From a virus (Duplodnaviria; Heunggongvirae; Uroviricota; Caudoviricetes), in IMG/VR virus record IMGVR_UViG_2778261692_000003, positions 1-40,582 of that record: a stretch of 40,582 bases of DNA; one strand, given 5' to 3'. Shown here one piece after another: positions 38,563-38,893 of this stretch. Position numbers and translations under genes: made by a program. Numbering within the stretch: the stretch's first letter is position 1; each line of letters begins with the position of its first letter. The notes below the pieces were generated by a model. That model searched no databases and was not told the origin of the DNA. It saw nothing but the letters and a program-made list of their open reading frames with translations.

Positions 38563-38604
38563 GCCTGATTTGCAGGTTCGATTCCCTATTCGGAGATAGC
38601 ACTC

Positions 38605-38805
38605 ATGCAACACGAACTACAACCTGATTCACTGGTTGATTTGAAATTCATCATGGCTGATACTGGCTTCGGTAAGACCTTCATCTATGACCGGATTAAG
38701 TCCGGAGACCTGCCTAAAGCCAAAGTTATCCACGGACGAGCAAGATGGTTATATCGTGACCATTGTGAATTCAAAAATAAGCTCTTAAGCCGCGCTAATG
38801 GGTAA
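38605..38805 (+). CDS. torI: Excisionase / recombination directionality factor (AlpA/TorI family winged HTH)
   Basis: 66 aa MQHELQPDSLVDLKFIMADTGFGKTFIYDRIKSGDLPKAKVIHGRARWLYRDHCEF... matches recalled TorI; located at prophage end opposite the integrase. Confidence 0.8.
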   Translation: MQHELQPDSLVDLKFIMADTGFGKTFIYDRIKSGDLPKAKVIHGRARWLYRDHCEFKNKLLSRANG

Positions 38806-38878
38806 AATAGCGGGTAAAATATTTCTCACATCTAAAAAATATCATTCCAATCAATCCCCTGCCGCGCCAAGTAGATGT

Positions 38879-38893
38879 CTGCAGGGGACACCA
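38879..38893 (+). other. Putative attR core: 15-nt match to a tRNA-Arg 3' end (CTGCAGGGGACACCA)
   Basis: Sequence ends in ACCA and matches recalled 3' end of argW; lies 73 bp downstream of torI, at phage/host junction. Confidence 0.5.

Follow-up and report, generated by a model that had tools for sequence, protein, structure and literature searches.

The viral record IMGVR_UViG_2778261692_000003 spans 40,582 nucleotides, and this whole stretch is referred to here as the window. It contains an apparently complete P22-like prophage of E. coli, ~38.9 kb long, the right end of which holds the attachment site analyzed here. A P4-like integrase gene of the intS type stands at the left end of the prophage, followed by minus-strand late genes, a plus-strand early-left operon, and finally torI, which encodes an excisionase or recombination directionality factor (RDF) (PMC3509656, PMC2951348). 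The structural region is ~95-96% identical to those of the P22-like phages Kapi1, CUS-3, phiv205-1, and Sf101. Non-phage DNA lies 3′ of torI and carries a gene for an oligosaccharide transporter of the major facilitator superfamily (MFS). Two short pieces that bracket torI match the tRNA-Arg(CCU) gene argW: ATTTGCAGGTTCGATTCC, read at 38568-38585, and CTGCAGGGGACACCA, read at 38879-38893, which begins 73 bp past the torI stop codon, a spacing equal to that in K-12 and HK620. The downstream piece, the crossover core already familiar from KplE1/HK620/Sf6-type prophages, holds nothing new, and the locus itself is a further instance of that known recombination system. The upstream piece, which we call the box, is probably a second, tRNA-derived copy of the T-arm, located at the left boundary of the module.

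We used K-12 argW as the reference tRNA (GTCCTCTTAGTTAAATGGATATAACGAGCCCCTCCTAAGGGCTAATTGCAGGTTCGATTCCTGCAGGGGACACCA; L001, 510-584), whose 3′ part reads ...GGGCTAATTGCAGGTTCGATTCCTGCAGGGGACACCA. The upstream piece shares 17 of its 18 bases with argW nt 44-61 and includes an exact argW 16-mer (nt 46-61), and the downstream piece equals argW nt 61-75. Together, the two pieces, which lie 293 bp apart on one strand and are collinear with argW, tile its last 30 nt and overlap by a single base (C). No other argW k-mers of at least 11 nt occur in the whole 40.6-kb window. The expected number of shared 16-mers is 1.1e-3 for the window, and a length of 16 was reached in 1 of 200 shuffles; by our own arithmetic, the chance of such a match within ~320 bp of the core on the same strand is ~5e-6. 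Neither argW match is due to chance. ARAGORN finds 0 tRNA genes across the window, and Rfam gives no tRNA match at E ≤ 10 in 38400-39000. An earlier note on this DNA, made from the sequence alone, had likened the two pieces to a tRNA T-arm and an acceptor 3′ end, together resembling the 3′ half of argW, and had taken this to mark attR. Alignment to K-12 argW bears out both resemblances, and the downstream piece is indeed the published KplE1 core (PMC2951348), a copy that the K-12 annotation lists as the pseudogene pawZ. That reading also called for a tRNA-Arg gene upstream of the integrase, and K-12 has such a gene 161 bp upstream of intS, as does the genome with the closest integrase, an annotated intS to which the int gene of the window is 99.8% identical.

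To assess how widely the box is conserved, we compared RDF loci sampled from one genome per species, viral contigs, and phage records. The box has the family consensus TTnCAGGTTCGATTCCC and lies ~19 nt ahead of the RDF start codon; its sequence in K-12, HK620, and Sf6 is identical to that of the window. It precedes RDF genes of three protein clades, namely a TorI-like clade (GFGKTFIY), a g341c-like clade (GMGKTFIY), and a third clade (..AKYFY..) that includes Erwinia phage phiEt88. Box-bearing hosts include Escherichia, Citrobacter, Serratia, Pantoea, Edwardsiella, Erwinia, and Salmonella, and the box is also present in Erwinia phages Midgardsormr38 and phiEt88 and in Salmonella g341c. When the box and the Shine-Dalgarno (SD) sequence were searched together in viral contigs, 114 of the 119 matches preceded an RDF gene of this family and the remainder were true tRNAs. 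All box-bearing modules target tRNA-Arg(CCU), with a core of TGCAGGGGAC(A/G)CCA or a close variant, and the family consensus of the box agrees with the tRNA at 15 of 17 positions, a likeness that extends beyond the loop to TT.CAGG. Among 29 representatives that were selected for carrying the box, GTTCGATT is invariant. Pairwise identity averages 0.87 over the 14-nt box and ~0.77 over its 8 positions that did not anchor the alignment, compared to 0.46 for the third positions of RDF codons and 0.34 for the adjacent 5′ flank. This conservation indicates a probable role in cis.

The box is the only element besides the core that stays constant while the integrase arm sites and the RDF sites change between clades. 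Integrase arm sites switch from GGGTAAA to GGGCATA, and the box is unchanged. The clade 3 attPs (phiEt88, which is L345, and L179, L182, L186, and L188) contain 0 GTTCG-type and 4 TTACC-type P′ sites, and 4 of the 5 keep GTTCGATTCCC. At the five positions of the P′-arm RDF sites, (A/G)GTTCG in L003-L008 gives way to (A/G)T(T/A)ACC in L179, L182, L186, L188, and L345. The RDF helix switches alongside these sites, from GKTFIY to (A/S)KYFY, which looks like clean coevolution of an RDF and its sites within one module architecture. Tandem duplication of the box has occurred in two independent ways, with a 16-nt period in the Midgardsormr38 group (L005, 2484-2516; L215, L216, and L218) and a 14-nt period in L212 (~1469-1496).

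The position of the box coincides with a break in homology. Homology of the HK022/Stx-phage type (lambdoid) extends through the upstream gene and the terminator as far as 38558-38567, and homology of the HK620 type starts in the terminator and continues to the core. Upstream of a shared T tract and box, the terminator hairpin comes in three different versions. In HK022, the TTGC repeats are followed directly by GGAGAC-xis; in the module of the window, AGGTTCGATTCCCTATTC intervenes. The box sits exactly where the lambda-type and HK620-type integration modules diverge. The coordinates of all features are collected in Table 1.

Table 1. Features of the window that bear on the attachment site and the upstream box
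Feature	Position	Strand	Details
intS-type (P4-like) integrase gene	1..1158	+	ORF of 385 aa; attL end of prophage
Intrinsic terminator	38539..38559	+	Hairpin 38539-38554 and T tract; ends the variable early-left region
TTGC-N5-TTGC	38561..38573	+	Predicted cII site of the 'pI' promoter in the HK620 record; spacing non-canonical
T-arm-like box	38570..38586	+	argW 16-mer 38570-38585; family-conserved core 38573-38586 (CAGGTTCGATTCCC)
Shine-Dalgarno GGAG of torI	38592..38595	+	Within conserved leader CGGAGAT (alignment)
torI, excisionase/RDF	38605..38805	+	66 aa
Two direct GGGTAAAA repeats	38800-38807 and 38812-38819	+	Read as IntS arm-type sites, P arm
TCCCCTGC	38855..38862	+	Inverted copy of core bases GCAGGGGA (38881-38888)
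Putative phage-side core-type site C (AGATGTC)	38873..38879	+	Imperfect inverted repeat of GACACC across the overlap
attR core	38879..38893	+	15 nt identical to argW nt 61-75; published core; pawZ annotation
Putative 7-bp overlap TGCAGGG; B′ GACACCA	38880-38886; 38887-38893		

Several observations weigh against the reading of the box as a conserved, tRNA-derived element with a role of its own. It is missing from about a quarter to a third of lineages, for example, Klebsiella phage Chronis, Erwinia Ehr49, Dryocola, and L184-type contigs, whose module is apparently intact all the same, and it is therefore dispensable. Identical leaders stand before different RDF genes (L016 versus L167), so recent recombination, and not selection, may underlie some of the conservation. 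Among E. coli sequences, the box has about the same frequency of singleton mutations as the rest of the leader. The conservation figures carry the ascertainment bias of box-selected representatives, and a single tRNA is the target in every lineage found. As the window starts with the int ATG, its own attL and argW lie beyond it. Any role of the box is putative. The box-less variants (L017 of Dryocola, L184, and L189-L196) retain the same left (TTATTGCCTG) and right (GAGATAA) flanks and correspond to a ~25-nt indel that takes out exactly the box, joining TTATTGCCTG to GAGATA. Lineages mostly carry the box intact or lack it entirely, with few degenerate forms (L188, L143, L147, and L203), a pattern that suggests selection with occasional loss.

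The attachment site itself closely follows the published system. KplE1 is bordered by a duplicated 16-nt core, CTGCAGGGGACACCAT (PMC2951348), of which 15 of the 16 bases are found here; the 16th base is G rather than T because the bacterial flank is occupied here by the MFS transporter and a sugar kinase gene and in K-12 by dsdC. HK620, Sf6, and Kapi1 share this attP core, located between xis and int (PMC8787464; HK620 and Sf6 records). Published IntS arm-type sites all contain TAAA (PMC2951348), as does GGGTAAAA, which occurs twice in 38800-38819. An attR that is functional for excision in vitro measures 135 bp and begins in the last torI codons (PMC3509656). Relatives show an imperfect inverted repeat around the core, with G(A/G)TGT(C/A) to the left of TGCAGGG and GAC(A/G)CC to its right; the left half is GATGTC in the window and GGTGTC or GATGTA elsewhere (window 38873-38893 compared with loci L005-L008 and L015-L030). 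From this repeat flanking TGCAGGG, we infer a 7-bp overlap between two core-type sites. The repeat also accounts for the departure of attP from the tRNA at exactly two or three bases.

An inverted copy of part of the core lies between torI and the core. In the window, the copies TCCCCTGC and GCAGGGGA are 18 nt apart, with the C site between them. Such an inverted core copy of 6-9 nt is carried by 58 of 67 distinct flanks, and it covaries with variants of the core, reading TGTAGGGG/CCCCTACA in Rouxiella and TGCAGGGAA/TTCCCTGCA in Edwardsiella. This copy could serve as an additional core-type site or form a hairpin after torI.

We evaluated the origin of the box by asking how much of the tRNA is retained next to the core. 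The earlier note had proposed that torI splits a single tRNA 3′ half. In this scenario, an ancestral attP with ~30 nt of continuous argW homology would have received a 293-bp cassette (torI and the P arm) at the T-stem, and the one-base tiling of argW nt 46-75 by the two pieces, on the same strand and in the same order, is what it predicts. However, this abutment is specific to the E. coli lineage, and the attP of most relatives keeps T-loop homology directly left of the core (ATTCGATGT), leaving nothing missing there. Across 47 distinct phage-side flanks left of the overlap, TT.GAT matches the tRNA T-loop in 37-46, with the C/A position variable, and the two bases before the overlap are systematically GT where the tRNA has TC; in a fixed register, the flank consensus matches the tRNA at 7 of 10 positions (binomial P ~0.004). 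These matches show that a T-loop segment of its own persists in attP, which makes the upstream box an additional copy. The segment beside the core has decayed to GTAGAT in the E. coli lineage. The junction is not conserved either: a conserved C follows the box where the tRNA has T, and the boxes of Serratia and Pantoea BAV run on into CCTG (...GATTCCTG), overlapping the core in tRNA coordinates. Viral contigs contain no uninterrupted T-arm-plus-core before an RDF leader, and the leader from box to ATG has no significant tRNA similarity (4-6 of 14 ungapped matches versus 3.5 expected, by our own count). The Serratia leader does resemble CCTG, 9 nt, and CAGGAG, but this match includes the SD sequence. 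The published 135-bp attR, which excises in vitro, also leaves out the box, and we regard an insertion that split the tRNA homology as quite unlikely. A chance likeness of the box to the generic T-loop consensus is extremely improbable. Although GGTTCGAWTCC is common among tRNAs and GTTCG doubles as an RDF motif, the window holds an exact 16-nt match to the very tRNA that its own module targets, the family consensus extends the likeness to TT.CAGG outside the loop, and the other common T-loop variant (GTTCGAATCC) never precedes an RDF gene (120 matches, 0 followed by an RDF-like ORF). A tRNA-derived origin of the box is well supported. The suggestion of the earlier note that the attachment region carries extended tRNA homology holds directly beside the core, where the homology is imperfect and has mostly decayed in the E. 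coli lineage. Its other suggestion, that torI sits inside an ancestral att duplication, appears to fit the data better than a simple insertion, short of proof here.

What the box does is a separate matter. It might mimic the bacterial (B) arm of attB (the tRNA T-loop) as a working site, be engaged by the core-binding and catalytic domains of integrase or by a host factor, and thereby couple integrase occupancy to torI expression or intasome behavior. The box corresponds to the 13 nt immediately left of the overlap in attB and shares its constancy across switches of integrase arm and RDF sites with the core alone, and the phage-side C sites of most lineages also retain TTCGAT. We nevertheless consider such a mimic doubtful, since mutation of the core left IntS binding to attL unchanged and core-type binding is weak, which speaks against a strong integrase site (PMC2951348). 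In addition, the E. coli C site still works without TTCG, and the box lies ~300 bp from the crossover, outside the minimal attR (PMC3509656), and has neither a second half-site nor overlap homology. The broadest version of this idea is that a working attB-arm mimic stands before the excisionase gene in every tRNA-Arg(CCU) clade. The core-binding domain of integrase or a host factor would recognize it, so that excisionase expression, and through it the choice between lysogeny and excision, would respond to integrase occupancy or to the state of the host; equivalently, the RDF gene would have been captured between two attachment copies. We hold this to be conceivable but rather unlikely. A role as an operator for TorI, which would bind GTTCG in the box (38576-38580) and autoregulate torI as it represses intS at attL, draws on the published TorI pentamers (GTTCG, GATCG, and GTCCG; PMC2951348), on the independent tandem duplications in the Midgardsormr38 group and L212, and on GTTCG-type repeats that also flank distant AlpA-like RDF genes. 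It is very unlikely, however, given that the P′-arm sites of clade 3 now read (A/G)T(T/A)ACC and no longer include GTTCG, while the box is unchanged. The box also offers a single site instead of the ~10-bp phased array seen at attL, with duplicated boxes 14 or 16 bp apart, and its conservation spans ATTCCC, which real TorI sites do not share. The HK620 and Sf6 GenBank records mark a promoter and a cII site here, and the terminator and TTGC repeats have their homologs immediately ahead of xis in HK022/lambda; the box could accordingly be contained in a cII-activated 'pI' promoter that drives integrase expression during lysogeny establishment. Such a promoter has little probability in our judgment. 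The repeats have N5 spacing, whereas the lambda-like site of the window itself at 30001-30014 has N6; TTGC-N5-TTGC is not enriched (12 found versus 7.5 expected); and the TTGC repeats are missing in most box-bearing lineages. A scan of 38300-39000 found no sigma-70-like promoter, and the box would serve as the spacer, normally the least conserved part of a promoter.

Four further candidates were rejected. The box does not appear to be an integrase arm site, as the switch of the arm motif leaves it unchanged, or part of the recombination substrate, as the 135-bp attR used in vitro excludes it. An RNA element or T-arm mimic in the torI leader would be expected to fold, and the RNAalifold consensus reaches only -0.33 kcal/mol with 5 weak pairs and no meaningful covariation. 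The single-sequence fold has z = -2.4, the 3′ stem complement is absent from most lineages in the leader alignment, and Rfam has no RNA family match for the box region (38400-39000). A small upstream ORF (33 aa, 38498-38599) ends at TAA/TAG within GGAGATAA; in Edwardsiella, an in-frame TGA lies just before the box, and Midgardsormr38 has a frameshift.

The reading that we prefer, a tRNA-derived second copy of the T-arm at the left boundary of the module, can be placed in a proposed scheme of the KplE1/HK620/Sf6 type, in which the order is torI - attP - intS and the target is the tRNA-Arg(CCU) gene argW. IntS, together with TorI and integration host factor (IHF), would exchange strands at the core against the identical argW 3′ end in attL, probably across the putative 7-bp TGCAGGG flanked by G(A/G)TGTC and GACACC. 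The box marks the left edge of the module and opens the torI leader, and it may be conserved as a vestige at the boundary of the recombination module, with a cis role in torI expression or in module exchange as the most likely reason. Because the box is constant while the RDF and integrase arm sites change, this role would be tied to a shared factor, such as the tRNA target, the core-binding specificity of integrase, or a host factor. An effect on torI expression through a target-linked factor of this kind would be the likeliest function. The persistence of the box points to one of three causes, namely recognition by a factor common to all clades, short shared homology at the module boundary, or inheritance with unusually slow decay.

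The box is a small but real observation on the well-studied KplE1/HK620/Sf6 model, a 13-16-nt copy of the T-arm of the target tRNA. A string search of the literature, in which the papers on this system were partially covered, did not find the box sequence or its tRNA likeness, and as far as this search reached, the tRNA identity of the box and the breadth of its conservation are apparently undescribed. According to published work, excision in this family is decided chiefly at the step of excisionase expression. If the box is functional, it would be an unrecognized control on that expression; if it is only a fossil, the xis-attP-int arrangement would have been assembled around a tRNA-derived sequence. 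Either way, it is a modest refinement and no new kind of system.

Comparison with known systems places the window closest to K-12 KplE1 and to phages HK620 and Sf6. KplE1 (CPS-53) has the same order of box, torI, two GGGTAAAA repeats, and core, its box 16-mer and 15-nt core are identical to those of the window, and the K-12-type locus L010 encodes the same 66-aa TorI sequence. In K-12, the integrase is found next to argW at the other end. KplE1 is, however, a 10.2-kb remnant compared to the 38.9-kb, apparently complete prophage of the window, and it differs in its attR flank (dsdC rather than the oligosaccharide MFS transporter) and in the 16th core base (T rather than G). HK620 and Sf6 share 95% nucleotide identity with the window from the terminator T tract to the core, with an identical box, and the TorI of the window is 100% identical to HkaC of HK620 and gp18 of Sf6 and is annotated as torI in RefSeq genomes. 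Their records annotate the box region as a predicted promoter and cII site, and the Sf6 record marks the start of boundary sequence bsq2 there. Their attP is in the circular phage form, with the P′ arm and int after the core, whereas the window holds the prophage form.

Lambda and HK022 have an upstream gene, a terminator, and TTGC repeats before the excisionase gene that are homologous to those of the window. They differ in their order, xis-int-attP instead of torI-attP-intS, and in having no T-arm box. The integrase family and attachment site of lambda and HK022 are also different, with no homology to the argW-type core. More generally, a tyrosine-integrase phage with an attP at a tRNA carries the 3′ end of its target tRNA, so that integration leaves the gene intact. 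This scheme reportedly goes back to Reiter (1989), and Williams (2002) is said to have divided such sites into sublocation classes. As in that general scheme, the attR copy in the window is the displaced 3′ fragment of the tRNA; the scheme does not include a better-preserved T-arm copy 300 bp away before the RDF gene, as found here. Distant RDF homologs from Synechococcus, Hyphomicrobiaceae, and Pseudomonas phages have no box and a different gene order. In two Synechococcus loci (L034 and L036, ~1700-1800), distant AlpA-like RDF genes are followed by repeated CGTTCG motifs, and GTTCG may be an ancient recognition element of the AlpA family.

Additional observations concern the surroundings of the attachment site. 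A 43-aa ORF (38798-38929) starts inside the end of torI and crosses the attR core, and it is the positional homolog of HK620 hkaB and Sf6 gene 17. As it runs across the core, the phage and prophage forms encode different C termini. The bacterial flank of attR (39335-40582) encodes, on the minus strand, the oligosaccharide MFS transporter and then a sugar kinase, which we take to be the csc sucrose locus. In L012, L019, L022, L032, and L161, other P4-like integrase modules are arranged in tandem at the same core, downstream of attR. Each has CGGTTCGAT between inverted arm-type repeats just upstream of int, indicating that T-loop-like GTTCGAT motifs are common in this integrase superfamily.

Two regulatory motifs elsewhere in the window complete the picture. 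At 30001-30014, TTGCGTTTGTTTGC forms a canonical lambda-type cII site (TTGC-N6-TTGC), presumably identical to that of lambda pRE, and falls within an ORF of the opposite strand (29730-30110); it suggests a lambda-like cII/pRE arrangement in this P22-like prophage. Upstream of the terminator, in a conserved hairpin region, CTGTTCATTT (38505-38514) matches the TorR box, which we take to be CTGTTCATAT, at 9 of 10 positions. This likeness is probably meaningless, as a 10-mer with one mismatch is expected ~2 times per window.

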